A stretch of DNA of 64,000 bases from an uncultured virus (IMG/VR IMGVR_UViG_3300046689_000650) (Duplodnaviria > Heunggongvirae > Uroviricota > Caudoviricetes): the IMG/VR virus record IMGVR_UViG_3300046689_000650; one strand, written 5' to 3'. Under the pieces are notes generated by a model. It was not told the origin of the DNA, did no database searches, and was given only the letters and a program-made list of their open reading frames with translations. The position numbers and the translations under genes are program-made. Positions within the stretch are counted from its first letter, which is position 1. Each line of letters opens with the position of its first letter. Shown in pieces: positions 1-62,137 of this stretch.

Positions 1-924
1 TGCCGGGCGCCCACTCTCAAGCCGCCGTCCGCGCCCCGCTCGAAGGCCCGCGCGTGGACCAGGAGCCGGGTTCTCGCCGTGCAGGCCCAACTGCCCGAGT
101 ACTACCGCGTGCTCGTCGACATCGGGGCCGGGGCGGGACTGCGGCAGGGGGAGGTGCTCGCCCTGTCGGAGGACGACATCGACGTGGAGGGCGGCTTCAT
201 CCACGTGCGGCGCCAGATCCGCAGCATCGAAGGGAAGCTGGTGTTCTCGCTCCCGAAGGGGAACAAGACGCGCACCGTCCCGATGCCGGACCATCTCGCG
301 CAGCGCCTACGACAGCACTTGGAGCGCTTCCCGGCTAAGCCTGTGACGCTCCCCTGGAAGGATCCTCGGCCGCCGACGAGCAAGGTGGAGGCGAAGGAGC
401 GGGCGCCGCAGACACACAGACTGTTGGTCGTTAACAGGAATGGCAATGCCGTCCGGGCGAACATGTGGAACGAGGATCACTGGAAGTGGGCGTTGGCCGA
501 GGCCGGCGTGATTCCGAAGCCGAAGCGCGTCCCCCGGAGTTCTGGTGTGGGTACCCGCCTCGTGTACGGGCCCACTCACGAGATGGGCTTCCACTCGCTG
601 CGCCACACGTATGCGAGCGTGCAGCTGGACTCGCGGGAGAATCCCGTGGCAGTCTCGAAGTGGCTTGGTCACGCTGACGCGTCGATCACGCTGCGGGTGT
701 ACGGGCACTTCATGCCCGAGGCGGACGGCCGTGGCCGGCAGGCCCTGGACGCCTGGTTCGCCAGGACGGATGATCCCGCGCCATCCTCCCCAGCCGCTCC
801 CCAGGTGTCTGTTTCAGGGGATTCGGGCGGTGGTCTGCTCCCCCGCCAGGCAGGCGATCTATGGCAGCCCGAGGTGCTGGATACGGCACTTGAGCTGCAA
901 GAATCCGTTGACGCGACCGCGTGA
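1..924 (+). CDS. int: Tyrosine integrase, C-terminal catalytic part (5' end outside window)
   Basis: Frame open from position 1; GLRQGE (R), PKG (K), HSLRH, LGH and VYGH catalytic motifs. Confidence 0.93.
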   Translation, partial: CRAPTLKPPSAPRSKARAWTRSRVLAVQAQLPEYYRVLVDIGAGAGLRQGEVLALSEDDIDVEGGFIHVRRQIRSIEGKLVFSLPKGNKTRTVPMPDHLAQRLRQHLERFPAKPVTLPWKDPRPPTSKVEAKERAPQTHRLLVVNRNGNAVRANMWNEDHWKWALAEAGVIPKPKRVPRSSGVGTRLVYGPTHEMGFHSLRHTYASVQLDSRENPVAVSKWLGHADASITLRVYGHFMPEADGRGRQALDAWFARTDDPAPSSPAAPQVSVSGDSGGGLLPRQAGDLWQPEVLDTALELQESVDATA

Positions 925-4228: not shown

Positions 4229-4559
4229 CTCAGCCGTGCCGAGACTCGAGGCCCTCCGTTTCCTCGAGCGCGTCCAGCTTGCCGACCTCGAGCGCACCCG
4301 CCGGTGGATCGCGGCCGAGGAGCAGCGGCAGGCTGAGCGGGAGCGCGGAAGGCAAGCCCGGCCGCCGGCGCCCGACTGGATGATCGAGCAAGGGCTCAAC
4401 GGGGGCATGCCCGTCTACGTGCACCGCGGCGACTGTCACATGAAGGGGAAGCGCAGCAAGGGCGTCAGCGAGGACCAGGCGCGCCGGGCGCTCGCCGAAG
4501 GGGTGGATGCGTGCACGCACTGCCGGCCCGACAGCGAGCTGGGCTACCTGGAGGGCTAG
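4221..4559 (+). CDS. DUF6233-like protein
   Basis: VHRGDC...ARRALAEGVDACTHCRPDSELG C-terminal signature. Confidence 0.7.
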   Translation: MNDSAVPRLEALRFLERVQLADLERTRRWIAAEEQRQAERERGRQARPPAPDWMIEQGLNGGMPVYVHRGDCHMKGKRSKGVSEDQARRALAEGVDACTHCRPDSELGYLEG

Positions 4560-5473
4560 GCAGACCGCGGCTTCCGGCGGGCCGTCTTCTTCGCGGTCGT
4601 CTTCTTCGCCGTGGTCTTCTTGGCGGGCTGCTTCTTCGCCGCCTTCTTCGCGGTCTTCTTCTTGGGCAGGTCGTGGACGGTGGCGTCCTCGCCGCGGGAC
4701 TCGCGTGCCTTCGCTACCGACTCCTGTAGCGCGGCCATCAGGTCGACGATCTGGCCCGGCTCCTTCGGCTCCTCGGCCACCGGCGGCTCTCGGTTCTCCC
4801 GCTTGGCGTCGATCAGCTCCTCAACCGCCCGCGTGTACTGGTCAGTGAACTCATCCCCTTCGAGGTCGTCGCGGGTGAGCCGGTCGATGAGATGCTCGGC
4901 CTCGGCGAGCTCCTGCTTGGTGAGCTTCACCTCCTCGGGCGCAAGCTCCCCCGGGTCCCGGACCTCGTCCGGCCAACGCATCGCATGCAGCACGATCACG
5001 TTGTCCCGGACCCTGAGCAGCCCCAGCCGTTCCCGACCGGACCAGGCGTACTTCGCCACCGCCACCTTCGACGACCGTTGCAGGGCTTTGACGAGCAGCA
5101 TGTACGGCTTCGCAGCGACCTGCCCGTCCGGCTGCAGGTAGTACCCGTCGCCCACTCGGATCGGGTCGATGCTCTCGGCCGGCATGAACGCCACCAGCTC
5201 GATCGCTTTCGCCGTCGGCAGCGGCATCTCGCGCAGCTCCTCGTCGAGGACGGGGATGAGGCGCTCCTTGGTCAGCTGGTATCCCTTGCCGATCTCCGCG
5301 TTCGAGACCTCGCGGTCCTCGACCTCGCAGATCTTCCGGTTCCGGACCCGGCCCATGTCCTCCAGGTGGACCTGGTGGAAGTGGATGCTGTGGTCCTCCG
5401 TGGCGCTGACCACGTGGATCGGGACCGTGACCAGGCCGAAGCTGATGGCGCCTGACCAGATGGTTCGGGGCAT
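4556..5473 (-). CDS. ku: Ku protein (NHEJ DNA end-binding) with basic C-terminal tail
   Basis: MPRTIWSGAISFGLVTVPI N-terminus, VDLMAALQES, KKTAKK tail. Confidence 0.95.
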   Translation of the reverse strand: MPRTIWSGAISFGLVTVPIHVVSATEDHSIHFHQVHLEDMGRVRNRKICEVEDREVSNAEIGKGYQLTKERLIPVLDEELREMPLPTAKAIELVAFMPAESIDPIRVGDGYYLQPDGQVAAKPYMLLVKALQRSSKVAVAKYAWSGRERLGLLRVRDNVIVLHAMRWPDEVRDPGELAPEEVKLTKQELAEAEHLIDRLTRDDLEGDEFTDQYTRAVEELIDAKRENREPPVAEEPKEPGQIVDLMAALQESVAKARESRGEDATVHDLPKKKTAKKAAKKQPAKKTTAKKTTAKKTARRKPRSA

Positions 5474-5765
5474 GACTGACCTCCGCGACGTGCCCCGAGG
5501 AGGCCAGCCTACGAAGCTCGGCGGCTGGGCGCACACCGGCGCCGGGCAGCCGCATGGCCTCCCGTGGGGAGCCGGGAGGAGCGGCGGGCCCCGCCCAGCT
5601 CGCAGCTCGCGGCGGGGCCCGGAGTGGGGCCTCACCTGGGGGGATCGGTGGGCCCGCGCGATCAACGATGCACCAGAACAAGCCACGGGGATAGATGCGT
5701 GACTGGAAATATCCGCTCGGCACGAGGGGCTGACAGACCGGGCAGCATGCGCCTACCGTGACCGG

Positions 5766-5923: not shown

Positions 5924-7105
5924 TCAGGCGTGGTCGTCCTCGGCCTCCTCGACTTCCCGTACCGCACGCTTGCGTCGCATGGCGGTGATGGTGTTGTTGG
6001 CCTCGCCCTGTGCCGGTTCGACGTAGTGCTTGCGCACGGTGATGGAGCCCGGTTTCCAGCGCCCCTGTCCGGTGGGGTCTTCGCCTGCTTCGGCGATCTC
6101 TTGGGCTGGGCCGCGCCGGAGCCCGTGAGCGGTGACCTTCGATGGGTCAGGCAGGTCGGTGAGCTTGGCGCGGGCTTTGACGATGGCACCGATGGCGTCC
6201 GGCGTGAGGAAGTCGCCGCGCGGCCCGGTGGACCGGTGCCGGATGGTGCCGCCCCGGTTGATGTGCCGGAACAGCGGCCCTTCGGCGACGCCTTGCCGCC
6301 GAAGTTCTTCGAGCCAGGCGCGCACCCGGACGACGGGGCAGGTGGCCGGGTCGTCCGGGTTCGCCGGTACGAAGGTGGTCGCGCCCTTGGCTGCCTGGTC
6401 GGTCTTGGAGAAGGCGACGAGGACGTGGATGCCGGTGGGTCCGATGGTGAGTTGCTCGATGAGCAGGTGGGCGAGTTCGCTCCGGCGGGAGAGCATGCCC
6501 CAGCCGAGGGTGAGGATCGCGGCGTCGCGGGCGGCGTTGGGGTAGTCGGCGTCGGTGTCGCTGACGCAGGTGGCGACCATGGCGGCGAGCATGTCGGTGC
6601 GGATGCCGGTGGCCTTCTTGGCCGTGCGGCGTTGTGCCCAGCCGCGCGCGTGCTTGCGTAGGGCCTCGCTGGCTTCCTTCGTTCCGGGCTGTTGTCCGTC
6701 GGCGTGTCCGGAGCGGATTGCGGACATGGCGACTTGGATGGTGGACGGGGACTTGTCCTGCCGGATGAGGTGGCCGACGTACTCGACGAACGTGGCGGTG
6801 GTGCAGGGCAGGTGGACGCGGCCGTTCTCCTGGCACCACGCTTTGAAGCGGTCGCGTGCGGACTTGTAGGTGCGGGACGTGTTCTCCGGGGGCGCCTCGT
6901 CGAGGAGTTCGGCGGTTTCCTTGGAGATCCGGAAGTCGGCTTCGGTGTACGTCGGCAGGTCGGCAGTGGTCGGGATCGGCGCGTTGGGGCGGAGGATCGT
7001 GTGCCGGTCGACGAGCGGCCGTGCGGGTGTCGTCTCGGGGAGCGGGGCGGGGAGGTGGTCGTCGTCCACGATCTCGGCGTCGACCACCTCGTCGGGCTCG
7101 TTCAT
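5924..7105 (-). CDS. Cre-like tyrosine recombinase/resolvase
   Basis: N-terminal SAM-like domain (PENTSRTY..F.AWC); RDAAIL..RRSEL, SKTDQ, HGLRRG, GRW and Y residues. Confidence 0.88.
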   Translation of the reverse strand: MNEPDEVVDAEIVDDDHLPAPLPETTPARPLVDRHTILRPNAPIPTTADLPTYTEADFRISKETAELLDEAPPENTSRTYKSARDRFKAWCQENGRVHLPCTTATFVEYVGHLIRQDKSPSTIQVAMSAIRSGHADGQQPGTKEASEALRKHARGWAQRRTAKKATGIRTDMLAAMVATCVSDTDADYPNAARDAAILTLGWGMLSRRSELAHLLIEQLTIGPTGIHVLVAFSKTDQAAKGATTFVPANPDDPATCPVVRVRAWLEELRRQGVAEGPLFRHINRGGTIRHRSTGPRGDFLTPDAIGAIVKARAKLTDLPDPSKVTAHGLRRGPAQEIAEAGEDPTGQGRWKPGSITVRKHYVEPAQGEANNTITAMRRKRAVREVEEAEDDHA

Positions 7106-7464
7106 GCGGCGTTCCTCGCGTTCTGCGGCCAGGACCAGCCCATCCGTGCCCGGTGTTTGCCGTCGTGGCGGACTTCCCTGTTGCACGGGCGGGGACGGTA
7201 CGAGGAGGGAACCAGGTTGGCGGGCCCACCGATGTGGCCGCACTCTTCCTCGTCTGGCGAGGCGAAGTCCTTGAAGTGGTCCATGTGCAGCAGTGCTGAC
7301 GCCTCGTCGCTGTAGCAGAGGTGCGTGATGCAGCTCCCACAGAACTCGCACTCGGTGCACTGATCGAAGTCCCACGGATCTACCTGCACGCCGAAGTGGG
7401 CGAGGTAGCGCTCGTTGGCGCAGGGAGTGCCGTAGCGGCCCCATGTCTTCTGGTCGTCGGTCAC
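7102..7464 (-). CDS. Cys-rich hypothetical protein
   Basis: Translationally coupled to the recombinase; CTECEFC. Confidence 0.55.
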   Translation of the reverse strand: MTDDQKTWGRYGTPCANERYLAHFGVQVDPWDFDQCTECEFCGSCITHLCYSDEASALLHMDHFKDFASPDEEECGHIGGPANLVPSSYRPRPCNREVRHDGKHRARMGWSWPQNARNAA

Positions 7465-7874
7465 GCTGCCTTCCCGTCATCCTCGATCTCCGGGGCGTAC
7501 CGCTCCTGCTCGTCTTCCATGTAGGGGTAGCCGAGGTAGTAGCCGACCCAGGCGGTCTCGATGTACGTGTGTGAGCGGCACGGCATGCAGACCGCGTACA
7601 CCCGGCCCTTGTCGAGGTCCGGCTGACGGACGGCCACTCGCCCGCGCTCGTCGAGGAGTTGCGTCTCGAAGACGAAGGAGAGCGGCTGCCACTGGTGCTC
7701 GCCGCCGGGAGTCTTCGGGCACTGGGTCGCCGATTGATCAGTGTCCGCGCCACCGTCGCGAAGCGGTCGGTGCCGCCGTGCATCGCAGTCCGGGTGGCCG
7801 CACTTCTCCCATCCCCACTCGTTGCCGTCGCGGAGCCAGTAGTGCTCGCCTTGATGGGTACCGCTGCCGTACAT
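7461..7874 (-). CDS. Hypothetical protein
   Basis: GAGGGG RBS; GTGA overlap with the next gene. Confidence 0.55.
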   Translation of the reverse strand: MYGSGTHQGEHYWLRDGNEWGWEKCGHPDCDARRHRPLRDGGADTDQSATQCPKTPGGEHQWQPLSFVFETQLLDERGRVAVRQPDLDKGRVYAVCMPCRSHTYIETAWVGYYLGYPYMEDEQERYAPEIEDDGKAA

Positions 7875-7888
7875 GAAGCCCCCTCAGA

Positions 7889-7922
7889 GTAGGTCCGTAT
7901 AAGGGAAATTATACGAGGCTAC
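7889..7922. other. loxP-like recombination site (13-8-13)
   Basis: GTAGGTCCGTATA-AGGGAAAT-TATACGAGGCTAC; arms 10/13 inverted; inner CGTATA/TATACG identical to loxP. Confidence 0.7.
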
Positions 7923-8040
7923 CGCTGGTAACTACCTGCACTTCAGGGAACGTTATGCGCTAGCAAGTACCGAGGTGCTACTGACAGTTGACCTGGCCTT
8001 CGGCAGAGTCGCGGAGCTGGCAAGCAACGAAGGGGTGGAG

Positions 8041-8223
8041 ATGGTGGAGCGAAGGTACGACCAACTGCAGGCGCGGGCGCTCAGCAACTTGGACGACACC
8101 TACGCCGGGGAGGCTGGCTCCGACGACCAAACGGCAACGCTCGCCAGGGCTCAAGTGCACGCCCTGCTGGCAGTCGGAGCCGCGATCAAGGATCTGGCGG
8201 AGGCAATCCGCGAGGGCCACTAG
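8041..8223 (+). CDS. Small hypothetical protein
   Basis: LARAQVHALLAVGAAI helix; terminator hairpin follows. Confidence 0.5.
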   Translation: MVERRYDQLQARALSNLDDTYAGEAGSDDQTATLARAQVHALLAVGAAIKDLAEAIREGH

Positions 8224-8275
8224 AACGAACGGCGCCCCCGCTCCCCTGCCGGTTGGCAGAGAAGCGGGGGCGTCG

Positions 8276-8359
8276 TCAGTCTTCGTCGTCGTCCGGCCAG
8301 TCGGGTTCGAGGAACGGGCGCGGCGACAACCAGAACGGCGGCGGGGGATCGTCGGCCAT
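8276..8359 (-). CDS. 27-aa Pro/acidic peptide
   Basis: GAGGAG RBS; MADDPPPPFWLSPRPFLEPDWPDDDED. Confidence 0.45.
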   Translation of the reverse strand: MADDPPPPFWLSPRPFLEPDWPDDDED

Positions 8360-8406
8360 GGCGGGCTCCTCGGATGGTCGTCGAGTTGGCGGTGAGGCCG
8401 GGTGGT

Positions 8407-13611: not shown

Positions 13612-13760
13612 ACACCGCCATCGCCATCACGGCGATCATCGCCGCGCTGCTCCTCGCCAACTCGATCGTGACGGCCATCCGCGACGTAGCCACCGCCAAG
13701 CACCAGGCCGCCGCATGCAAGAACTGCACGCGTGACAACAGCAAGGAGACAGAGGCATGA
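13608..13760 (+). CDS. 50-aa single-TM protein
   Basis: MNTAIAITAIIAALLLANS; coupled to both neighbours. Confidence 0.5.
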   Translation: MNTAIAITAIIAALLLANSIVTAIRDVATAKHQAAACKNCTRDNSKETEA

Positions 13761-14710
13761 AGGTTCTGGTCACGGGAGGATCCGGCTTCATCGCCTCGTG
13801 GATCCGCAAGGAGCTGATCGCGCGCGGCCACACGGTCCTGGTCATGGACCACCAGGACCGCCGCCAGCAACTGGCGCCCGGTGAGGAGTTCTTCCTCGGC
13901 GACGTCCGCGACGCCACGGCGGTAACGGAGGCTGCCGCGCACTGCGAGGGGATCATCCACCTCGCGGCCGTCCTCGGCACCCAGGAGACCATCAGCAACC
14001 CGCGCCCGTCCGCCGCGACGAACATCCTCGGCAGCCTCAACGTGTTCGAGGCCGCGACGCAGTACAGGCTCCCGGTCGTCTACGCCGGGGTCGGCAATCA
14101 CGCCTTCAGGCTGATCGGCACCGGCTGCTACACGATCACCAAGTCGGCGGCTGAGGATCTGGCCCGCATGTACAACCTCTACCGGGACGGCGGCCGGGTC
14201 ACCATCGTCCGCCCCGTCAACGCCTATGGTCCCGGGCAGTCGATCGCCGCCCCCTACGGCACCAGCAAGGTTCGGAAGATCATGCCCTCGCTGAGCTGCC
14301 GCGCCCTCACCGGCGCCCCCATCGAGGTGTACGGCGACGGCACCCAGATCTCCGACTGCGTGTACGTCGCCGACGTCGCCCGAGCCTTCGTCACCGCCCT
14401 GGAGCACACCGCGCAGCACGGGCCCACCGAACGCCCCGTCGAGGTCGGACCGTTGGCATCCCTCACCGTCAACGACATCGCCCGCCTCGTCGCCGAAGAA
14501 GCCACCCACTACACCGGCCGCGAGCCCGTCGCCATCAAGCACCTCCCCATGCGGCCCGGCGAGATCCCCAACGCCGTCGTCACCTCCGACACGTCCACGC
14601 TCCAGCAGATCGGCATGACCGCCGCCGACTTCGTGCCCCTCGACGAAGGCATCCACCACACCGTCCGCTACTACGCCGAGCAGTGGCTCCCCGGCTACCT
14701 GGCAGCCTGA
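13757..14710 (+). CDS. NAD-dependent epimerase/dehydratase
   Basis: VLVTGGSGFIA, HLAA, YTITK (YxxxK), NAYGPG, GDGTQ. Confidence 0.92.
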   Translation: MKVLVTGGSGFIASWIRKELIARGHTVLVMDHQDRRQQLAPGEEFFLGDVRDATAVTEAAAHCEGIIHLAAVLGTQETISNPRPSAATNILGSLNVFEAATQYRLPVVYAGVGNHAFRLIGTGCYTITKSAAEDLARMYNLYRDGGRVTIVRPVNAYGPGQSIAAPYGTSKVRKIMPSLSCRALTGAPIEVYGDGTQISDCVYVADVARAFVTALEHTAQHGPTERPVEVGPLASLTVNDIARLVAEEATHYTGREPVAIKHLPMRPGEIPNAVVTSDTSTLQQIGMTAADFVPLDEGIHHTVRYYAEQWLPGYLAA

Positions 14711-14711
14711 C

Positions 14712-15722
14712 GTGCGCATCCACTTCTGGTCGGCTGACGAGGCAGGCTCCGCCCTGTACAGGGCGGTCCTGCCCGGCATGAGCCTGCAATGGCTCGGGCA
14801 CGCCGTGTCCGCCGGGATGCGACTCCCCCACGACTGGGTCACCGTCGACACCGTCGTCGGCTGCCGCGTCGCCAAGCCGGAGCCGACCATGATGTGGCAG
14901 CGGCTGAAGGAGATCGGGAAGCGGCTCGTCCTCGACGTCGACGACGACTACTTCCACCTCGACCCCGCCAACCCGGCCGCCATCCGCACCTGGGACCGGC
15001 CGATGCTGCAACGGCTGGCCGACAACATGCAGCTAGCCGACGTCGTGACCTGCTGCTCCGAACGGTTGGCCACCGTGCTGCGGGACTACGCGGCCGACGT
15101 CCGGGTCGTCCCCAACGGGCTGCCGGCGCAGTACCTGGGACTGCCCCGCGACTACCAGGCCGAGGACCGGCCGCTGTCCGTGGGCTGGGCTGGCACGTCG
15201 TCCACCGTGGCCGAGCTGCCTGAGGCGGTCCGGGCGCTGACCAGGATCTCCCGCTACCCGCGGCCGGGCGGTGTGCGGGTGCCGCTCGTTGGCATCTCGG
15301 CGGAGCACGCGGCCAGCCTCGGGTTGAAGGGCCGCGGGATCGGCTCGTGGGGTTGGGTGGAGCGGCACGAGCACTACATGCAGGCGGTCGGCGAGTGGGA
15401 TGTCTGGGTGGCGCCGTACCGGGACATCCCGTTCAACCGGGCGAAGTACCCGACGAAATTCCTGGAGTCGAGCATCCTCGGCATTCCGTTGATCGCGTCG
15501 GACATCGAGCCGTACCGCCGGGTGATCCGGCACGGGGAGAACGGGTTCCTCGTCCGCTACGAGCACGAGTGGGGCCGCTACCTGAAGCTGCTCGCGGACG
15601 ATCCTGACCTGCGGCAGCGGATCGGGATGACGGCCCGCGCGGAAGCGTCCGGGTCGATCCTTCAGGCGACCAACGTGCACTGGCAGGCCGCACTCACCGC
15701 ACCCGTGGCGGTGGCGGCGTGA
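14712..15722 (+). CDS. Glycosyltransferase, GT-B fold (GT4-like)
   Basis: DVDDDYF, VVPNG, VGWAG, FNRAKYPTKFLE, ASD..PY...HGENGFL. Confidence 0.85.
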   Translation: MRIHFWSADEAGSALYRAVLPGMSLQWLGHAVSAGMRLPHDWVTVDTVVGCRVAKPEPTMMWQRLKEIGKRLVLDVDDDYFHLDPANPAAIRTWDRPMLQRLADNMQLADVVTCCSERLATVLRDYAADVRVVPNGLPAQYLGLPRDYQAEDRPLSVGWAGTSSTVAELPEAVRALTRISRYPRPGGVRVPLVGISAEHAASLGLKGRGIGSWGWVERHEHYMQAVGEWDVWVAPYRDIPFNRAKYPTKFLESSILGIPLIASDIEPYRRVIRHGENGFLVRYEHEWGRYLKLLADDPDLRQRIGMTARAEASGSILQATNVHWQAALTAPVAVAA

Positions 15723-16582
15723 AGGTTCTCGTCACCGGTGCCACCGGGTTCATCGGTAGCCACCTCGTCCAGGAGCTCGCCGCGTGCGGCCACCACGTCG
15801 TCGGCGTCGACAAGAGGACTGGATGGCCGGCCGCCGACCTGCCCGCTCTCCAGTGCGCGATCGAGGCCGCCGGCCCCGACGTCATCGTCCACCTCGGCGC
15901 GTCCTGCTCCACCCAGGTCAGCCTCGCCGACCCCGCCCGCGACTTCACCGACAACGCGATCGGCACGTTCAACGTGGCCGAAGCCGCCCGGCGCGCAGGT
16001 GGCGTGCCCGTTCTTTTCACGTCCAGCGTGAAGGTGTACCCCGGCCCGGACGGGCTCATCGCCCCACTCGGTCAGTCGAAGCTAGTAGGCGAGCAGTACC
16101 TGCGCCTCTACGGGGACCTGTACGGCCTGCCGCACGTCATCCTCCGCCCGTCCACCGTGTACGGGCCTGGGCAGGACGGCTCGCCAGAGGCGGGCTGGGT
16201 GACCTGGTTCCTGCGCGCCTTCTGGGGGCGGAAGCAGATCACCGTCCACGGTGACGGCACCCAGTCGCGGGACATCCTGCACATCGAGGACTTCACCGAA
16301 CTCCTCGTCGACATCGTCGAAAACTTCGACGCCTACCAAGGCCGCACCTACGAGGTCGGCGGCGGCCCCGACAACGAGATCAGCCTCCTCCAGCTCCTTC
16401 ACGCACTCGAAGTCTCCACTGGCGTCCGCCCCGACGTCATCCACGACGAGCGGCTCCCCGGCGACTTGCAGCGTGTCGTCAGCGACAACGCCGCCATCAG
16501 CGGCGTGCGCGGGTGGAAGCCCACCGTGTCCTGGGTCGATGGCGTCCGGTCCACCCTCGACTGGATCGGGGAGCAGTGGTGA
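15719..16582 (+). CDS. NAD-dependent epimerase/dehydratase lacking the canonical catalytic Tyr
   Basis: VLVTGATGFIG, TSS, LGQSK in place of YxxSK, VYGPG, GDGTQSRD. Confidence 0.88.
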   Translation: MKVLVTGATGFIGSHLVQELAACGHHVVGVDKRTGWPAADLPALQCAIEAAGPDVIVHLGASCSTQVSLADPARDFTDNAIGTFNVAEAARRAGGVPVLFTSSVKVYPGPDGLIAPLGQSKLVGEQYLRLYGDLYGLPHVILRPSTVYGPGQDGSPEAGWVTWFLRAFWGRKQITVHGDGTQSRDILHIEDFTELLVDIVENFDAYQGRTYEVGGGPDNEISLLQLLHALEVSTGVRPDVIHDERLPGDLQRVVSDNAAISGVRGWKPTVSWVDGVRSTLDWIGEQW

Positions 16583-17337
16583 AGGTCGGCGTCGCCATCC
16601 CCGCCCACAATGCCCTGCCGTGGCTGGCCACGATGCTCGGCAGCATCCGGCGCCAGACCCACCCGGCGCACACGTACATCGCTGAGGACCGAGGCGACGA
16701 CGGCACCTACGACTGGCTGAAGCAGAACCCCGACTGCTGGTCCGGGTTGAGCCGCAACCGGCGCCGCCTTGGCTGGGCCGGCAGTCTCAACGCCGCAGCA
16801 CGCCTTGCGCTGGACGATGGCTGCGACGCGATCTTCACCGCGTCCGCCGACGACAAGCTGCACCCTGAGTGCATCGCGCGCTGCGTGGCTGCGCTCGATG
16901 GGGAGGGCGGCCGGGACTTCATCGTCCCCTACGCGCAGCAGTTCGGCGAGGCGGACACCGTGCAGGCCTCGTTGCCGGATGCCGGTCTGGACGATCTCGT
17001 GCGGTGGCCGCCGCTCATCGACAAGGCCCTGCTCCGGCGGCCGACGTGGGAGCGAGTGGGCGGCTACTCGGCGAAGGCCACCCCGCCGGGAACGTATGGG
17101 ACGGCGGAGGACTGGGATTTCTGGATCCGGGTCTGGAAGGCCGGGCTGACCCGGTACGCGGTGATCGAGCAGCCGTTGTACTTCGTTCGCGTCCACCCGG
17201 GGCAGCTGTCCGACAGCCGCGCCGAGCATCACGCGGCGACCGTTGACCTGCTCCGCAATCTGCACCCTGACCTGCCATGGACCGCCGACTCCAGCATCTG
17301 GCCCCCGAGGCACCGCACCGCAAGGAGAACCGCATGA
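16579..17337 (+). CDS. Glycosyltransferase family 2
   Basis: VAIPAHN, DDGT, ADD, VGGY, EDWDFW. Confidence 0.9.
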   Translation: MKVGVAIPAHNALPWLATMLGSIRRQTHPAHTYIAEDRGDDGTYDWLKQNPDCWSGLSRNRRRLGWAGSLNAAARLALDDGCDAIFTASADDKLHPECIARCVAALDGEGGRDFIVPYAQQFGEADTVQASLPDAGLDDLVRWPPLIDKALLRRPTWERVGGYSAKATPPGTYGTAEDWDFWIRVWKAGLTRYAVIEQPLYFVRVHPGQLSDSRAEHHAATVDLLRNLHPDLPWTADSSIWPPRHRTARRTA

Positions 17338-18197
17338 TCGACGGCAAGCGCGTGATCGCTTGGACACCCTACGGGCGCCGCCGCACCTACAGCATCTTGA
17401 TCAAGTACCTGGAGCGGGACGTCAACCGTGGTCTCGTCGACGAGGTGTGGGCGTTCATGAACACCGACCCCGTCGGGCAGGAAGACGACATCGCCTACGC
17501 CCATGAGCTAGCCGAGCAGTTCCCGTGGTTCCACCTCAAGCACCGGCCCGAGGGCGTCGATCTCGGCAACCTCCCCAAGCAGCGGTATACGGGCTTGGCG
17601 TACCGGTACATGACCGACCCCGACACCGTCTATCTGCGGCTAGATGATGATGTCGTCTACCTGCACGAAGATGCGATCGAGAACCTGGTCCGCGCCCGGA
17701 TCGAGATGCCCGCGCCGGTCGCCGTGTTCCCGATCATCATCAACAACGCGATCTGCTCCCACTTCCTCCAGCTGTGCGGGAAGATCCCCATGGAGTGGGG
17801 CGCGGTCGCCCCGTACTGCATGGACCCGACCGGCTGGGCCAACGGGCCCTTCGCCGTCAAGCTGCACGAGCTGCTTCTCGACCACATCGAACGCGGTGCC
17901 GTCCGGGATCTGTTCCTCTATCAGGACTTCCCCATTCAGCCCGGCACGCAGTTCTCGGTCAGCTGCTTCGCCAGTCGCGGCGAGGACTACGCCGCGCTCC
18001 CCCAGCCCGGCGTCCTCGTCCCCGATGAGGAGGAGTCCTGGCACACCATTCACCAGCCGGTCGCCAAGGGCGTGCCGAACATCCTCCGCGGTGATGCCAT
18101 CGTCAGCCACTGGTCGTTCTTCCCCCAGCACCCGTTCCTCAACAACACCGATCTCCTCGACCGGTACCGCGAACTCGCAGACAAGGTGGTGGCGTGA
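17334..18197 (+). CDS. Putative GT-A fold glycosyltransferase
   Basis: TP.GRR N-terminus, YLRLDDDVVY (DxD), C-terminal SH; operon context. Confidence 0.65.
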   Translation: MIDGKRVIAWTPYGRRRTYSILIKYLERDVNRGLVDEVWAFMNTDPVGQEDDIAYAHELAEQFPWFHLKHRPEGVDLGNLPKQRYTGLAYRYMTDPDTVYLRLDDDVVYLHEDAIENLVRARIEMPAPVAVFPIIINNAICSHFLQLCGKIPMEWGAVAPYCMDPTGWANGPFAVKLHELLLDHIERGAVRDLFLYQDFPIQPGTQFSVSCFASRGEDYAALPQPGVLVPDEEESWHTIHQPVAKGVPNILRGDAIVSHWSFFPQHPFLNNTDLLDRYRELADKVVA

Positions 18198-44020: not shown

Positions 44021-44203
44021 ATCGGACAAGACGCGGACAGTGGACGGAAACCTGCAGGTGGGGCACCGGACAGGCATCGGACGGAGGGGGTCACGCAGCC
44101 CTCGAACTGTCCATGCGCGTCCGATGTCGGTCTGGTGCGTGACCTGCGGCTTTGCGGCCCGTGTCCGATGCCTGTCCGATGTCAGTTGCGGACATTCCGG
44201 ACG
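44021..44203. repeat. Phased YGGACR repeats and a 16-bp inverted repeat (clt-like)
   Basis: About 11 hexamers, many in 11-bp-spaced pairs; CGGACAGGCATCGGAC 44067-44082 / GTCCGATGCCTGTCCG 44163-44178. Confidence 0.65.
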
Positions 44204-46287
44204 GCGGTGATGTCGGTCAGCAGGTAGCCCAAGGTCCGCTGTCCGTCAGGGCCGGTGACCTTCTTCGCTTCGATGTCGACGCCGAGACGGTCCAGTTCGT
44301 CCTTCAGGATCTTGCCGACGCGGATCGACCAGCCGTGGCCCGTCTCGCCGTCCTGCTGCCCGTACTTGACCGAGTCGGTGGCGGCCAGCGCGGCGAACAC
44401 TTCGGCGTTCGTCACGTTGCCGCGGCCCGTCGCCTTGGCAAGAATCTCCAGACGCTCCAGCAGGGTGACGCGAACGATGCGGCCGTTGCCGCGCTCTCCG
44501 CCGGCTGCCGACGAGACGCCGGTCCAGGCCAAGAGCTTGGCCTCGATCGGGTCGTGCCACTGGCCGGGCAGCCGGCCCGCGGCCTTCCGGAGCTCGTAGG
44601 CGTCGGCGATGATCGGCGCCTTGTCGTCGTCATCGATGAAGAACGAGCGCAGCGACACCGTGCCGAGGTCGGGCGACTTGAACCAGAACCGGCCCGGCTG
44701 GTCGAGCGGAATCACCGAGGCGTCGTAGCCCTGACCGGCCATGCCGTCGCCGAGGATCGTGTTGGAGGCGTTCGGGGACTCGGTGTTCATGGCGGCCCGG
44801 GAGATCAGGTTCTGGCGGAGCCGGCCGCGGACGACGTCGACTTCCGGAACCTGGGTTGCCGCCACGAGGAGCACCCCGAGGCCGGCACCGACGGCGCCGA
44901 TCTGGGCGAGACTCTCGACGATCTCGTCGACGTAGGGGCTGGTGCCCTTGGCGGTGTACGTGGCCAGCTCGTCGATGTCGATGAGCTCGATGCCGCCGAT
45001 TGCTTCGATCAGGTCTTCCGTCAGCTTGGCTTTGCCGCGCTCGTCGAGGAAGTCACTGCGCCGGTCCAGATCCTCCAGGACGGCTCGCAGGAACAGGGCG
45101 AGTCGCTCGGGGTTCTTCTTGACGAACGTGGCCAGCAGGCCGGAGAAGGCGTTGTGCTCGCCGGACGCCTTGCCGTCGAAGAGGCGCAGGTTGAGCCGCA
45201 CATCCTTGGCGGCGCCGAGGTTGAGGTTGGCGAGGAACACGCCCTTGCCTCGGCGGGTGGCGCCGCCGACGAGCATCATCGTGTCGCGGACCCGGACGAG
45301 GACGGTGTTCCCTCGTTTACCGAAGGCGAGCGGGGCGCCGTCGTTCCACAGGTCGAGCTTGCCCTTGTGGCCGATGAGCGGGGAGACGTGAGCACTGGCG
45401 AACGGGTCCTCACGGGAGACCCAGATCTCCAGACGGGACTCGCTGCTGCCTGCACCGCGGCCCACGCTGAGGTCGAGCCAGTCGCTGTGGACTGCGAGCG
45501 CGGAGGCGATCTCCTTCTTCTTGGCGAGCGCGATCGTGGCCGGCATGCCGGAGGGCAGGTCGACAGCGAAGGCGATGCCCGGTCCTTCCGTGTGAGGCAG
45601 ACCCACGCCGCGGATCTCGGCGGCGCGCTTCTCGGGGACGACGCCGGCCTCGACGAGGACGCGCCGCATGGTCTCCTCCCCCAGGTGCGAAGTGCGGGTC
45701 GGGGCCTGGGCCGGAGTGACGGCCGGCTCGGTGGGGCGGCCGTGGTAAGCGCCGGTGAAGATGACGGCGAGGGCGAGGAGCACCTGCATCCACCAGCTAC
45801 CGAGCGCAGCAACGGCGGTGCTGCTGCCGATGACGACCAAGCCGCTGATGCCGGTACGGATCCAGTGCTTCGACTTGTGCTCCCGGTACTCGGCACGCAG
45901 GACCCGGCGCAGGGCGCGCGCCTTCGCCTGAGCCGCCGCACGGGCTTCACCCCGCGGAAGGCTGCGGGCATCGCGGATCATCTGCTTCGCCGTTGCGATC
46001 TGCTCCCGGTAGTCATCCTGTCGGGCTACCCACCAGCGGAGGCACAGTCGGCGGTAGCCGCGCAGCGACCAACCCAGGTAGTAGGGCGAGTGGGTGGCGT
46101 GGTGGGTGGCGAAGTCGACGGCGTTGTCGCGGGCGTACACAACCCACTGCCGCAACTGCTGGGCGGACATCATCCAGGCGGGTCGGGGGCGCTTCTCCAC
46201 GACCCACGCTGCGGTCGGGTCGACTGGCTTGGGGGCGTCCTTGACGAGCGTCAGCGCAGCACGCTCGTCAGTCAGCGGGGTGGCCAT
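44182..46287 (-). CDS. traB: FtsK/SpoIIIE-family TraB-like conjugative DNA translocase
   Basis: N-terminal TM pair, GATRRGKG Walker A, DGK, IDIDE Walker B, ATQ.P, C-terminal wHTH-like region. Confidence 0.85.
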   Translation of the reverse strand: MATPLTDERAALTLVKDAPKPVDPTAAWVVEKRPRPAWMMSAQQLRQWVVYARDNAVDFATHHATHSPYYLGWSLRGYRRLCLRWWVARQDDYREQIATAKQMIRDARSLPRGEARAAAQAKARALRRVLRAEYREHKSKHWIRTGISGLVVIGSSTAVAALGSWWMQVLLALAVIFTGAYHGRPTEPAVTPAQAPTRTSHLGEETMRRVLVEAGVVPEKRAAEIRGVGLPHTEGPGIAFAVDLPSGMPATIALAKKKEIASALAVHSDWLDLSVGRGAGSSESRLEIWVSREDPFASAHVSPLIGHKGKLDLWNDGAPLAFGKRGNTVLVRVRDTMMLVGGATRRGKGVFLANLNLGAAKDVRLNLRLFDGKASGEHNAFSGLLATFVKKNPERLALFLRAVLEDLDRRSDFLDERGKAKLTEDLIEAIGGIELIDIDELATYTAKGTSPYVDEIVESLAQIGAVGAGLGVLLVAATQVPEVDVVRGRLRQNLISRAAMNTESPNASNTILGDGMAGQGYDASVIPLDQPGRFWFKSPDLGTVSLRSFFIDDDDKAPIIADAYELRKAAGRLPGQWHDPIEAKLLAWTGVSSAAGGERGNGRIVRVTLLERLEILAKATGRGNVTNAEVFAALAATDSVKYGQQDGETGHGWSIRVGKILKDELDRLGVDIEAKKVTGPDGQRTLGYLLTDITAVRNVRN

Positions 46288-56843: not shown

Positions 56844-58222
56844 GACTGCGCCATGTCGACAAAGCGGCTGTAGTGGCCCTGGAACGCAGTGGTGATCGTC
56901 GCGGTTGGGCCGCCGCGATGCTTGCCGACGATCAAGTCGGCTTCGCCGGCCCGAGGGTGCTCCCGCTCGTAGGCGTCTTCGCGGTGCAGCAGGATGACGA
57001 TGTCGGCGTCCTGCTCGATGGCGCCGGACTCCCGGAGGTCGGAGACCATCGGCCGCTTCTCGGTGCGCTGTTCGGGGCCGCGGTTGAGCTGGCAGAGGAC
57101 GATGACGGCGATCCCGAAGTCCTTGGCGATCAGCTTCAGATTGCGGGAGATCTCGGCGACGGCCTGCTGCCGGTTCTCGGCGCGAGGCGCCTGCATCAGT
57201 TGCAGGTAGTCGACGATGACGAGCCGGAGCCCCTTGGTGCGGACCAGGTTGCGGATGCGGGCCCGCAGCGTCGGCAGAGACAACAGGGCGCCGTCGTTGA
57301 TCCACAGGGGGGCGGCGGCGATATCTGGGGCCCGGCGTGCGGCGCGGAGCATGTCCTCGTCGGTGGCCATGCCCTGCTTCAGGTGGTGAAGGGCGATGCG
57401 GGCTTCAGCGGAGAGGGTTCGGTCGGAGAGTTCGTCTTTGCCCATCTCCAGCGACTCGAACAGGGTGGGGATGGCGTTGCGGATGGCGGCGGCGCGGGCG
57501 AAGTCGAGGGCGACGGTGGACTTGCCCATGGCGGGCCGTGCGCCGATGACGACGAGTTGGCCGGGTGCCCAGCCGCCGGCGAGGAGGCTGTCGAGGTCGA
57601 TGAAGCCGGTGGGGATGCGGTCTTCGATGCTGGGTGGGGTGGTGGCCCGGTCGATGCTGCCGCCGAGCAGTTCCCCGATGAGCGCCAGGTTCTCCTCGTC
57701 GACCGGCCGGACGGCGCCGTCGAGGTCGGCCTGGATGGAGGCGACGTCGGCGTCTTCGTCGAAGGCCGGCGAGCTGCCTTTGAGGATTGCGTCGTAGCCG
57801 AGGGCGACAATGCGGGCGGCGACGGCCTTCTTGGCGACGCGGGTCGCGTACCAACTGGCGTTGCCGTAGTGCGCTTCGTTGCACAGTTCCATGAGCTGGT
57901 CGGCGGGAGGCACGCGGGTGGGCATGCTGCCGTCGGCGTGCCAGGTCTCGAGCTGCCGGTGGACGGCGAGGTGCTTGAGTTCGCCGTCCCGGAAGGCGGT
58001 TCGGAGTTCTTCGACGGCCCACCAGGTCCAGCGGAGCCAGTCGGTGGTGATGTCGGCGGGGTCGAAGCCTTCGGCGCCGAGGTCGTCGATGACGGCGGGC
58101 TGCATGATCGCGGTGGCGACGAGGATGCGTTCGGCTTCGAGGTCGCAGGGCCGGGAGGGCGGACGCGGGCCGGCATCGGCCACGGCCTCTTCGGCGATCC
58201 ACAGGTCGGCTTCGGTGGTCAC
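56840..58222 (-). CDS. dnaB: Replicative DNA helicase
   Basis: PTGF.DLD, GARPAMGKS, SLEM, IVDYLQL, QLNR, DLRESGAIEQDAD, KHRGGP. Confidence 0.96.
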   Translation of the reverse strand: MTTEADLWIAEEAVADAGPRPPSRPCDLEAERILVATAIMQPAVIDDLGAEGFDPADITTDWLRWTWWAVEELRTAFRDGELKHLAVHRQLETWHADGSMPTRVPPADQLMELCNEAHYGNASWYATRVAKKAVAARIVALGYDAILKGSSPAFDEDADVASIQADLDGAVRPVDEENLALIGELLGGSIDRATTPPSIEDRIPTGFIDLDSLLAGGWAPGQLVVIGARPAMGKSTVALDFARAAAIRNAIPTLFESLEMGKDELSDRTLSAEARIALHHLKQGMATDEDMLRAARRAPDIAAAPLWINDGALLSLPTLRARIRNLVRTKGLRLVIVDYLQLMQAPRAENRQQAVAEISRNLKLIAKDFGIAVIVLCQLNRGPEQRTEKRPMVSDLRESGAIEQDADIVILLHREDAYEREHPRAGEADLIVGKHRGGPTATITTAFQGHYSRFVDMAQS

Positions 58223-59043
58223 GCGCTGAACTCCTGGTTGAAGAGGTCGAATCGGTCGCCGAGCCTGGTGTTGGCCCAGATCACTTCCGTGCGGTCCTTG
58301 GTCGTCTTGGCGTTGCCGGTCATGGACGCCTTCTCGTAGCGGTGCCAGCCGGCGTACAGGTCGCCGTACAGCGGCGAGTGGTAGCCGGAAAGGACGACGG
58401 TGGCGCGGCAGTCGGCGAGCGCGGCCGCGAGCGCCCGGTGCTCGGCTTCGGTCTTCATCTCGACGCGGTAGTTGTTGCCCCACCCGCGGGTCGTGCCGAG
58501 GTACGGCGGGTCGACGTACAGCAGGCACTTGGGCTGCTTGCCGTACTTGGCGATCAGGTCAAGGGCAGGCATGTTCTCGAGCGACACGGCGTGAAGGCGT
58601 TCTGCCGCGGAGGCGAGGCGCAGCGCATAAGCCTCGAGGTAGCCCGGCATCGACGTGACCGACCCAGCAGGGTCGATGTAGTAGCGCCAGCCCGTGTTGC
58701 GCAGCGTGCCGGAGCGGCCCTGCGCGAGCCGGGACCAAATCCGGCGGGCCAGCTCAAGCTCGTCCGTCGTCGGGTCCCACGTCGCAGCGAGCTCGGCGCG
58801 GCCGTGCGGGGTGAGCATGCAGATGCGCAGCAACTCATCCGGCCGCTCGCGCAGCACTCGCCAGAACGTCATCAACTCGCCATCGAGGTCGTTGACGGTC
58901 TCCATCCGCGAGGGCCGTTTCGCGAGGAGCACCGACATACCGCCGGCGTAGGGCTCGACATAGTGGTCGTGGTCGGGCAGGAGGTCGACAATCCAGCCAG
59001 CAATGCTCTGCTTGGAGCCGAAGTAGGGAACGGGGCTCTTCAT
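58219..59043 (-). CDS. DNA adenine methyltransferase (D12 class), orphan
   Basis: PYFGSK, YVEPYAGG, NDLD, DPPY. Confidence 0.92.
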   Translation of the reverse strand: MKSPVPYFGSKQSIAGWIVDLLPDHDHYVEPYAGGMSVLLAKRPSRMETVNDLDGELMTFWRVLRERPDELLRICMLTPHGRAELAATWDPTTDELELARRIWSRLAQGRSGTLRNTGWRYYIDPAGSVTSMPGYLEAYALRLASAAERLHAVSLENMPALDLIAKYGKQPKCLLYVDPPYLGTTRGWGNNYRVEMKTEAEHRALAAALADCRATVVLSGYHSPLYGDLYAGWHRYEKASMTGNAKTTKDRTEVIWANTRLGDRFDLFNQEFSA

Positions 59044-61177: not shown

Positions 61178-62137
61178 CTAGGCGGCTGCTGCGAGTTGGC
61201 GGTGCGGCCGGAGGATTCCGGCGGCTTCGAGGACGGCCGCGGCGAGCGGTACCGGGACTGCGTTGCCGACGGCGAGGTACTGCTGGCCGGCGCGCCCGTG
61301 GAATACGAGTCCGGGCCGGAAGCCCTGGAGCGCGGCGCATTCGGCGATGGTGGGCCGCAGGTGCGGGAGTTCCCGGTCGCGCCAGGCCGCGGTGCCGATG
61401 TGCCGCTTCATCGCCTGCCGTGTCCCGTTGCCGAACGGCTCGGCTCCCCCGGTGTAGGTGCCGCCGGAGGTGACGGTGGGTGCGGGGCGTTGGGTGTAGC
61501 CCCAGCCGATGACGTCGGCCATGGCGGTCTGGGCCGGCTGGCCGAGCCCGCCGTGGGTGGGTGCGGGGAGCTGGATGTCGGCGATGCGGGAGGCGATGAG
61601 GACGGCCCGCTTGCGGGTCTGGCCGAGCCCGTAGTCCGCGGCGTCGAGGACGCCGGTGGCGACGCTGTAGCCCCAGCGTTGGAGGATGCCGGCGTACTGC
61701 TCCCAGACGGGCAGGACGCTGGGTACCTGTTCCATGGCGATGCGCTGCGGCTGCAGGTCGTAGTGCCAGCGCATCGGTTCGGCGGTGAGGATGCTGCGCC
61801 AGTCCAGGCAGTTGGCGCCGATCGCGGCCCGGGTGTCTTTGCCGCGGGAGAGGTCTTCGATCGCCTGGTGGACGAGCGGGAGATCCTGCAGGCCCAGCTT
61901 CTTGCCGCTCTTCCCGAAGCCGGGGCACGGCGGGCTGTCGATCTTGTCGACGTCGTAGCCCTTGAACGGGGCGGTCGGGTAGCGGGTGACGTCGCAGCGG
62001 ATCGTCGTGTGCCCGGCACCGATGCGGGTGCGGCAGGCCGCGGCGTCCAGCTCCAGGCCCACCTCGTCGTGCAGGCCGGTCTCGGACCAGCCGATGCCGG
62101 CGAAGCCGTGAACGGTCAGGTGCTGTCGGCGGATCAT
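61178..62137 (-). CDS. DNA cytosine-5 methyltransferase, orphan
   Basis: FAG, SPPCPGF, EQV, AADYGLGQTRKR, LQGF, GNAVP. Confidence 0.9.
   Translation of the reverse strand: MIRRQHLTVHGFAGIGWSETGLHDEVGLELDAAACRTRIGAGHTTIRCDVTRYPTAPFKGYDVDKIDSPPCPGFGKSGKKLGLQDLPLVHQAIEDLSRGKDTRAAIGANCLDWRSILTAEPMRWHYDLQPQRIAMEQVPSVLPVWEQYAGILQRWGYSVATGVLDAADYGLGQTRKRAVLIASRIADIQLPAPTHGGLGQPAQTAMADVIGWGYTQRPAPTVTSGGTYTGGAEPFGNGTRQAMKRHIGTAAWRDRELPHLRPTIAECAALQGFRPGLVFHGRAGQQYLAVGNAVPVPLAAAVLEAAGILRPHRQLAAAA

Follow-up and report, generated by a model that had tools for sequence, protein, structure and literature searches.

A putative Cre/MrpA-type recombinase and its candidate lox-like site in a tailed phage from high-GC DNA

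Does a temperate phage that already possesses an integrase carry a second, Cre-like recombinase with a recombination site of its own? The question is raised by a stretch of 64,000 nucleotides from an uncultured virus (IMG/VR record IMGVR_UViG_3300046689_000650), referred to here in its entirety as the window, in which a three-gene operon ending in a tyrosine recombinase gene is preceded by a 34-bp inverted repeat. A preliminary description of the window took gene and repeat to be a possibly new Cre/lox-like pair. I examined the pair against 78 genome loci carrying a homologue of the recombinase, against viral contigs in IMG/VR, and against known recombination systems. The pairing of enzyme and site is well supported by the comparative evidence, and the pair is best described as a new specificity class, found in a phage, of a known Cre/MrpA kind and not as a new kind of system. 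The two elements are as follows.

Positions 7889 to 7922, minus strand: candidate lox-like (or mrpS-like) site of 34 bp, reading toward the operon GTAGCCTCGTATA (7910-7922), ATTTCCCT (7902-7909), TATACGGACCTAC (7889-7901).
Positions 5924 to 7105, minus strand: putative Cre-type (MrpA-like) tyrosine recombinase of 393 amino acids, the last gene of the operon, containing FSKTDQ, AHGLRRG and GRW.

On the plus strand the site reads GTAGGTCCGTATA-AGGGAAAT-TATACGAGGCTAC, a 13-8-13 layout with an asymmetric 8-bp spacer, for which 14-6-14 is an alternative reading. Sequence, coordinates and the inner CGTATA/TATACG held in common with loxP of phage P1 are just as the preliminary description gave them. 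The site sits within a divergent intergenic region of 166 bp and ends 14 nt before the first ATG of the operon (position 7874), GAGGGGG lying in the gap. No other copy of the full site occurs in the window at up to 3 mismatches, and the pattern CGTATA-N8-TATACG, with at most one mismatch, has a single match there as compared to 0.01 expected. The symmetry of the arms is less telling. Repeats of the 13-8-13 type with at least 10 of 13 matches occur 62 times in the window, whereas 30 first-order Markov simulations gave 24 on average, and arm symmetry of 10/13 is by itself not unusual in this DNA. For that reason the significance of the site rests on its AT-rich inner palindrome and on its conservation across genomes.

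To judge the latter, the 78 loci were searched with a 20-nt core, CGTATAATTTCCCTTATACG, allowing up to 5 mismatches. The core was found in 57 of them, always on the strand of the recombinase, always upstream and once per locus. Its distance from the recombinase gene varies: in 23 loci the gap is at most 80 nt, another 29 have gaps of 131-701 nt, and in the remaining 5 the core stands 2-2.9 kb away. In most of the loci with longer gaps the open reading frames (ORFs) detected in between are co-directional. These intervening genes are not conserved: the ORFs that lie upstream of the recombinase in the window are absent from all 78 loci, and the recombinase is the only gene that all the loci have in common. 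A scan of IMG/VR with a 16-nt core matched 108 stretches, 80 of which were examined. A homologue was present downstream and on the same strand in every one of the 15 high-GC viral contigs among the 80, and in none of the 65 low-GC loci, which are chance matches. The preliminary description held that its proposal would fall if the site were not conserved beside homologues; in both collections it is.

The variation among the sites is itself informative. The outer arms vary yet stay complementary (for example GTAGCC...GGCTAC, CCACCC...GGGTGG and GCAGCC...GGCTGC). Covariation was assessed with 57 sites, the site of locus L042 being left out on account of an indel. Arm cells pair in register in 79.8% of cases, as compared to 25-50% when the partner arm is slid. 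Changes on both sides number 54 cells, against 27.8 +/- 4.2 in shuffled sets, none of 500 shuffles reaching the observed value, a control that is inflated by the relatedness of the sequences in a way that the slide control is not. Compensating swaps are seen at positions 2/33, 4/31 and 7/28. The arms thus co-vary, consistent with symmetric recognition.

Twenty-one loci lack the main site. Twelve of these belong to a second clade of recombinases (35-39% identity) and have a repeat of another sequence conserved upstream, GGTAGCCGACAATAA-N6-TTGTTGTCGGTAAT. The repeat is found in loci L063, L066-L068 and L071-L078 (for example at L074:4507-4542); it has the outer GTAGCC in common with the window site and differs from it in the inner arms and the centre. 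No other conserved inverted repeat was found in the 21 loci, within 3 kb upstream or 1 kb downstream.

The enzyme, described beforehand as a second tyrosine recombinase of Cre type, retains that assignment on the evidence of sequence and modeled fold. All members of the Cre-type catalytic set R-K-H-R-W-Y are present, with Trp at the fifth position (that of the second His), and the candidate residues (R207 or R208, K234, H327, R330, W350 and Y361) are invariant in 21 homologues. Alignment to P1 Cre by hhalign (E = 4.5e-5, 23% identity, 273 columns) pairs RRSEL, SKTDQ, HGLRRG, GRW and KHY with the R, K, HxxR, W and Y motifs of Cre. A profile built from the 21 homologues gave 18 matches to PDB sequences at E ≤ 0.01, of which the top 17 are Cre or its variant Tre (1e-5 to 1e-4) and the last is an Xer-like protein (1.2e-4, without a passing stretch). 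A model made by AlphaFold2 is of moderate quality, with a mean predicted local distance difference test score of 73. When it was compared by Foldseek with solved structures, all those above rank 34 among the matches listed were Cre or Tre (E from 7e-11 to 5e-8; template modeling score by target 0.55-0.60), and next came an archaeal Xer (5e-6), Tn1549 Int (5e-5), and XerH, lambda Int and XerD (about 1e-3). Pfam recognizes the N-terminal SAM-like domain (5.6e-6) and places the catalytic domain below threshold. These results make Cre by far the closest solved structure and mark the recombinase as Cre-like, with the two-domain fold of Cre in the model.

At its N terminus the protein has some 70 residues to which nothing in Cre corresponds. 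The stretch is conserved in the family and modeled with low confidence, and its pattern (residues 1-70) may be written EVVDAELVDD...RPLVDRHTILRP...PT..D.P.YTE.DF. This extension could bind a partner protein or a short element next to the site, an element that, in the form TTACC, precedes the site by 3-5 nt in 16 of the 58 rows of the site collection. In the window it is:

Positions 7927 to 7932, minus strand: GTTACC motif, 4 nt upstream of the left arm.

The family comprises 321 relatives in the databases, where it goes by the name "site-specific integrase", and almost all of those with named hosts come from Streptomyces or Kitasatospora. More distant relatives are found in Microcystis phage Mwe-JY05 (PP395638.1; 35% identity), in Streptomyces phage Gilgamesh (gp32, MN234216.1; 33%) and in the phage-plasmid ZL12 (GQ919031.1; 30%).

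How new is the pair? The nearest characterized system is MrpA/mrpS of the Streptomyces coelicolor plasmid SCP2*, reportedly the subject of articles by Warth, Haug and Altenbuchner in 2011 and by Warth and Altenbuchner in 2013, in Archives of Microbiology. In the SCP2 sequence mrpS was located at 7067-7102, 16 nt before the ATG of SCP2.07c. Since mrpS lies directly before it, SCP2.07c is taken here as MrpA; its annotation goes no further than "putative integrase/recombinase". By BLASTP it has 27% identity to the window recombinase (331 amino acids, E = 7e-24), and it has 26-33% identity to all 78 homologues; the window family is therefore a clade separate from it. According to the available part of one source, MrpA resolves plasmid multimers (PMC3218068); according to that of another, it interconverts plasmid monomers and multimers in Escherichia coli by acting on cloned mrpS (PMC4685060), the supplement giving the 36-bp site as an oligonucleotide, TCTGGCTCTTGATA-ACGTTCCT-TCTCTAGAGCCAGA. 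The title of the 2013 article, as it stands in a reference list (PMC6486577), speaks of a mutational analysis of mrpS and of a deletion system based on left and right elements.

The two systems have much in common: homologous tyrosine recombinases from one host genus; a site in which an inverted repeat surrounds an 8-bp centre, placed shortly before a ribosome-binding site and start codon (16 nt from the start in SCP2 and 14 nt in the window); a TAAnnT hexamer at the junction of arm and centre; and one site per circular replicon. They differ in the site itself, where 6 of 14 arm positions and 5 of 8 centre positions are identical and the arms are 13 bp long in the window and 14 in mrpS. They differ also in setting, for the window module belongs to a tailed phage with an integrase and has two unrelated small genes between site and recombinase. 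On these comparisons the window pair has the layout of mrpS with a different sequence and specificity class, in a separate clade. What survives of the claim of novelty is therefore the specificity class; as a kind of system the pair was anticipated by the homologous MrpA/mrpS, which has been characterized and used as a tool.

The pair was also compared with Cre/loxP. In the P1 record, lox reads toward cre as ATAACTTCGTATA-GCATACAT-TATACGAAGTTAT, and cre follows 435 bp downstream with the small gene cra in between, which confirms the remark in the preliminary description that loxP lies upstream of cre. As in P1, the window site stands upstream of the recombinase gene with small genes intervening. 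The two sites agree in their 13-8-13 layout and identical inner TCGTATA/TATACG, and their arms are identical at 10/13 and 9/13 positions (19/26). The enzymes have in common the R-K-H-R-W-Y set, and Cre is the closest match both as solved structure and as PDB sequence. On the other side, the proteins are only about 19-23% identical, the window protein has its N-terminal extension of some 70 amino acids, and the spacers are unrelated (3/8). Moreover, the window has a -10-like element inside the site, whereas the annotated promoters of P1 cre lie outside lox, and the host of the window phage is a high-GC actinomycete. XerC and XerD, whose sites are dif, cer or psi, are likewise tyrosine recombinases that resolve dimers, and the window protein has a weak NCBIfam similarity to both, its scores being 30.5 bits for XerC (cut-off 335.15) and 24.6 for XerD (cut-off 329.6). 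Beyond that they differ: the window has a single enzyme gene and not a pair, the Xer fold matches by Foldseek are at least 5 orders of magnitude weaker than those of Cre, and the site is 13-8-13, where dif has the layout 11-6-11.

Several Cre-type pairs have been obtained by genome mining, among them Dre/rox, VCre, SCre, Vika/vox, Nigri/nox, Panto/pox and YR1-YR11, according to the available part of Jelicic et al. (2023, PMC10250229), whose logic was to look for a palindrome with an 8-bp spacer less than 1 kb from a Cre-like gene. Two features that the same part of that article notes for active sites, GTATA adjoining the spacer and a T at arm position 7, recur in the window site. Its main text, in the form available, contains no mention of Streptomyces or Actino-; the roughly 500 candidate pairs in its supplement may already include the present family. 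Searches of open-access literature for the family or its site yielded nothing on a site of the ATTTCCCT type.

The site may do more than recombine, as two further elements suggest:

Positions 7908 to 7913, minus strand: -10-like hexamer TATAAT (overlapping TAATTT), straddling left arm and spacer; presumed promoter of the operon.
Positions 7945 to 7959, minus strand: CGCATAACGTTCCCT, a promoter-like centre without inverted arms, the "echo" of the preliminary description.

Of the 58 sites, 43 contain TATAAT, and 57 have a hexamer of the form TAAnnT where arm meets centre. The site is always situated 14-45 nt before a ribosome-binding site and start codon. These regularities lead me to infer a promoter of the operon within the site. 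A scan of 7400-8400 for consensus terminators returned none.

The second element was presented as a degenerate echo of the site. It exists, and has ATAACGTTCC in common with the mrpS centre, but as a lox half-site it was rejected: its flanks match at 5/14 positions as inverted arms, and it recurs in few close relatives only. It is identical over 23 nt to an element in locus L002 (L002:4170), while L023:4134 and L051:4551 are look-alikes of the left half of mrpS without a matching right arm. Such arm-less promoter-like centres, of the type (G/C)ATAA(C/T)GTTCC, are thus seen in the window (7945-7959), L002, L023 and L051, and could be either relics of recombination or extra promoters.

The number of sites per replicon bears on what the site might do. 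Pattern searches found exactly one copy, beside the recombinase, in each of seven whole genomes (6.4-11.3 Mb) and likewise in each of the plasmids pFP11 and pSP01. The sole record with two copies is the circular NZ_CP109593.1 (loci L080, L083 and L085; 48,614 bp), which has two sites 24,307 bp apart and two recombinase matches. The sites are exactly half a record apart, and the record is therefore a tandem duplicate; it looks like a head-to-tail dimer of a 24.3-kb plasmid, whether real or an artefact of assembly. Homologues with at least 44% identity are encoded by 28 Streptomyces plasmid records. Of the eight carrier plasmid records checked, six are circular (35-183 kb) and two are large and linear.

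The account that best fits these observations, to which I would assign a probability of about 0.65, is that enzyme and site would form a site-specific recombination module of the Cre/MrpA type, serving in multimer resolution, and perhaps also in cyclization, of a circular replicon. A dimer of the recombinase would occupy the 34-bp site by way of its two inverted 13-bp arms. Two directly repeated sites, such as a dimeric replicon or phage DNA with terminal redundancy supplies, would synapse, and strand exchange across the asymmetric centre ATTTCCCT would convert multimers to monomers or circularize the genome. Given the -10 element inside the site, bound recombinase would also repress its own operon, a form of autoregulation. 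Binding, the positions of cleavage, the role in resolution in this phage and autoregulation are all what I infer for the module and are to be read in that sense.

A number of observations weigh against this account. The right arm is degenerate in the window (hence the symmetry of only 10/13) and worse in some close relatives (7-8/13), and its outer half may not be bound. Nine of the 78 loci have neither type of site, although four of these have truncated recombinase matches; one of the nine, L026, has the core with a 1-nt insertion. The two linear carriers are plasmids without need for dimer resolution. Adjacency to a ParA gene is seen in pSP01 only: when ParA and its neighbours in pSP01 were searched in the 78 loci, ParA did not recur, and the sole neighbour that did was the small ORF directly before the recombinase (7 of 78 loci). 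An episomal phase of the phage, advanced in the preliminary description, is plausible; a scan of window ORFs turned up neither a partition gene nor one for plasmid replication. As for the promoter presumed to lie within the site, a consensus sigma-70 scan of 7400-8400 returned no sites and no -35 element. Finally, the centre ATTTCCCT is kept in 40 of 58 sites across enzymes that are only 42-88% identical, a conservation beyond the needs of recombination, which points to promoter constraint and makes a purely regulatory role possible.

Such a role, in which the site is only a promoter/operator bound by the recombinase or by another repressor and any recombination takes place elsewhere, would account for the centre being more conserved than the arms, for the hexamer (TATAAT or TAAnnT) inside 57 of 58 sites, for the constant position before ribosome-binding site and start codon, and for the arm-less centres nearby, both the echo and those in L002, L023 and L051. 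I nonetheless consider it unlikely. The recombinase is the sole gene common to all loci; the layout is exactly that of a tyrosine recombinase core site, with arms like those of loxP at 19/26 positions; mrpS, alike in position and layout, is proven as a site of recombination; and in the 21 loci lacking the main site, a search of 3 kb upstream and 1 kb downstream gave no other conserved inverted repeat. Still less probable is that the protein is a second integrase and the site a simple attP for insertion into a chromosomal pseudo-site. The name given to the family by the databases suggests as much, Cre-type enzymes are able to integrate DNA, and some loci (L001, L042, L053 and L068) do lie in multi-megabase chromosomal contigs. 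Yet the chromosomal sites are intact beside the gene, with no second copy in seven genomes (up to 3 mismatches, 18- or 20-nt core), no attL/attR pair was seen in them, the fold match to lambda Int reaches only E = 1e-3, most of the checked carriers are autonomous circular plasmids, and the window phage already has a separate integrase.

The single copy per genome counts equally against a DNA switch in which a segment between two sites is inverted or excised, and it is the reason that both the integration and the switch models were rejected. Tyrosine recombinases with simple sites do run DNA switches elsewhere, but with one site in the 64-kb window and one in each of the seven genomes and two plasmids, such a switch is very improbable here. 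As to the reading that the palindrome arose by chance in AT-rich promoter DNA between genes and has nothing to do with the recombinase, the excess of 13-8-13 repeats in the window (62 against 24 simulated) lends it some initial credit; an inner palindrome expected 0.01 times per window, and a site co-oriented with the recombinase in 57 of 78 and 15 of 15 loci despite unconserved intervening genes, leave it virtually none, and I regard it as refuted by the conservation in genome loci and in IMG/VR. Resolution of a circular replicon by a Cre/MrpA-type module remains the preferred explanation.

The surroundings of the module are considered next, beginning with the operon and its upstream border.

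Positions 7879 to 7885, minus strand: ribosome-binding site GAGGGGG of the first ORF, read directly from the sequence.
Positions 7461 to 7874, minus strand: first ORF of the operon, 137 amino acids, without a family and not conserved beside homologues.
Positions 7102 to 7464, minus strand: middle ORF of the operon, 120 amino acids, Cys-rich, without a family, its stop overlapping the start of the recombinase (ATGA).
Positions 8041 to 8223, plus strand: divergent small ORF, 60 amino acids, bounding the 166-bp intergenic region that holds the site.

The operon runs on the minus strand from 7874 to 5924 as three genes (7461-7874, 7102-7464 and 5924-7105) with overlaps of 4 nt. Its two small ORFs belong to no Pfam or NCBIfam family; their first atlas matches, at 0.88 and 0.82, fall short of a lead, and no relative of either was found beside the 78 homologue loci at E ≤ 1e-3. 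The divergent ORF likewise falls in no family of Pfam or NCBIfam, and PHROG gives it just two weak matches, of unknown function; neither it nor most of the other neighbours in the window are conserved at the 78 loci.

Two genes of recognizable function bear on the wider question of how the phage handles its DNA.

Positions 1 to 924, plus strand: separate phage integrase, cut by the start of the window (Pfam Phage_integrase 8e-14; PHROG integrase 7e-32).
Positions 4556 to 5686, minus strand: Ku-like DNA-end-binding protein, directly downstream of the recombinase (Pfam Ku 7.9e-42; PHROG Ku-like 3.4e-63).

The first bears out the earlier statement that the phage already has an integrase. The second is not linked to the recombinase among its relatives, being present in only 2 of the 78 loci. 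In mycobacteriophages Ku has a role in circularizing the linear genome by end-joining, and its presence in this phage suggests circularization of the same sort.

The window as a whole is DNA of about 69% GC from a rhizosphere metagenome, and its gene content as seen by Pfam and PHROG indicates a temperate phage of siphovirus type. It encodes a tail fibre, holin, tape measure, major head protein, portal and large terminase, regulators like Cro/CI and GntR, a DnaB helicase, an FtsK/SpoIIIE-like protein and two DNA methylases. Similarity to phages at the level of DNA is confined to a single match of 164 bp (68% identity) to an Arthrobacter phage, outside the region of recombinase and site. From 13757 to 18197, on the plus strand and thus opposite to the tail genes, lie genes for two NAD-dependent epimerase/dehydratases and three glycosyltransferase-like proteins, a cassette that may be a surface-glycan-modifying moron. 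The FtsK/SpoIIIE-like protein (44182-46287, minus strand, 701 amino acids) is encoded in the early region of the phage; a DNA translocase of this type drives plasmid conjugation in Streptomyces, and the gene hints at a phage-plasmid mosaic. The two DNA methyltransferases (58219-59043 and 61178-62137, minus strand) are of the N6-adenine (D12 class) and C5-cytosine types, and are adjoined by DnaB and a DnaC/IstB-like loader.

What, then, does the locus add? Because MrpA/mrpS had already established the principle in Streptomyces, the gain is incremental. It consists in giving an unannotated family of "site-specific integrases", widespread among the plasmids and phages of Streptomyces, an identity as recombinases, with a cognate site predicted in many variants. 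I would go further only tentatively, and at rather less than even odds, to suggest that Streptomyces plasmids and phages harbour a large, uncharted radiation of Cre-type enzymes, whose clades have diverged together with lox-like sites of their own, each with an embedded promoter. At least three classes of site would be distinguished on this suggestion: that of the window, the GGTAGCCGACAATAA-N6-TTGTTGTCGGTAAT class, and mrpS. Should the classes prove mutually orthogonal and free of accessory factors, they would make up a toolkit of recombinases that is ready for use and native to high-GC hosts. The variants of the site would be useful in choosing actinomycete pairs of recombinase and site that are orthogonal to Cre/loxP and MrpA/mrpS, and the natural covariation of the arms in studying how Cre-type enzymes read DNA. 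As to the biology of the phage, the locus prompts one to ask why a temperate phage already equipped with an integrase keeps a module for dimer resolution or cyclization beside a Ku gene. If the suggestion of such a radiation is true, the presence of the module in a tailed, integrase-bearing phage would mark it as one able to persist also as a circular plasmid.

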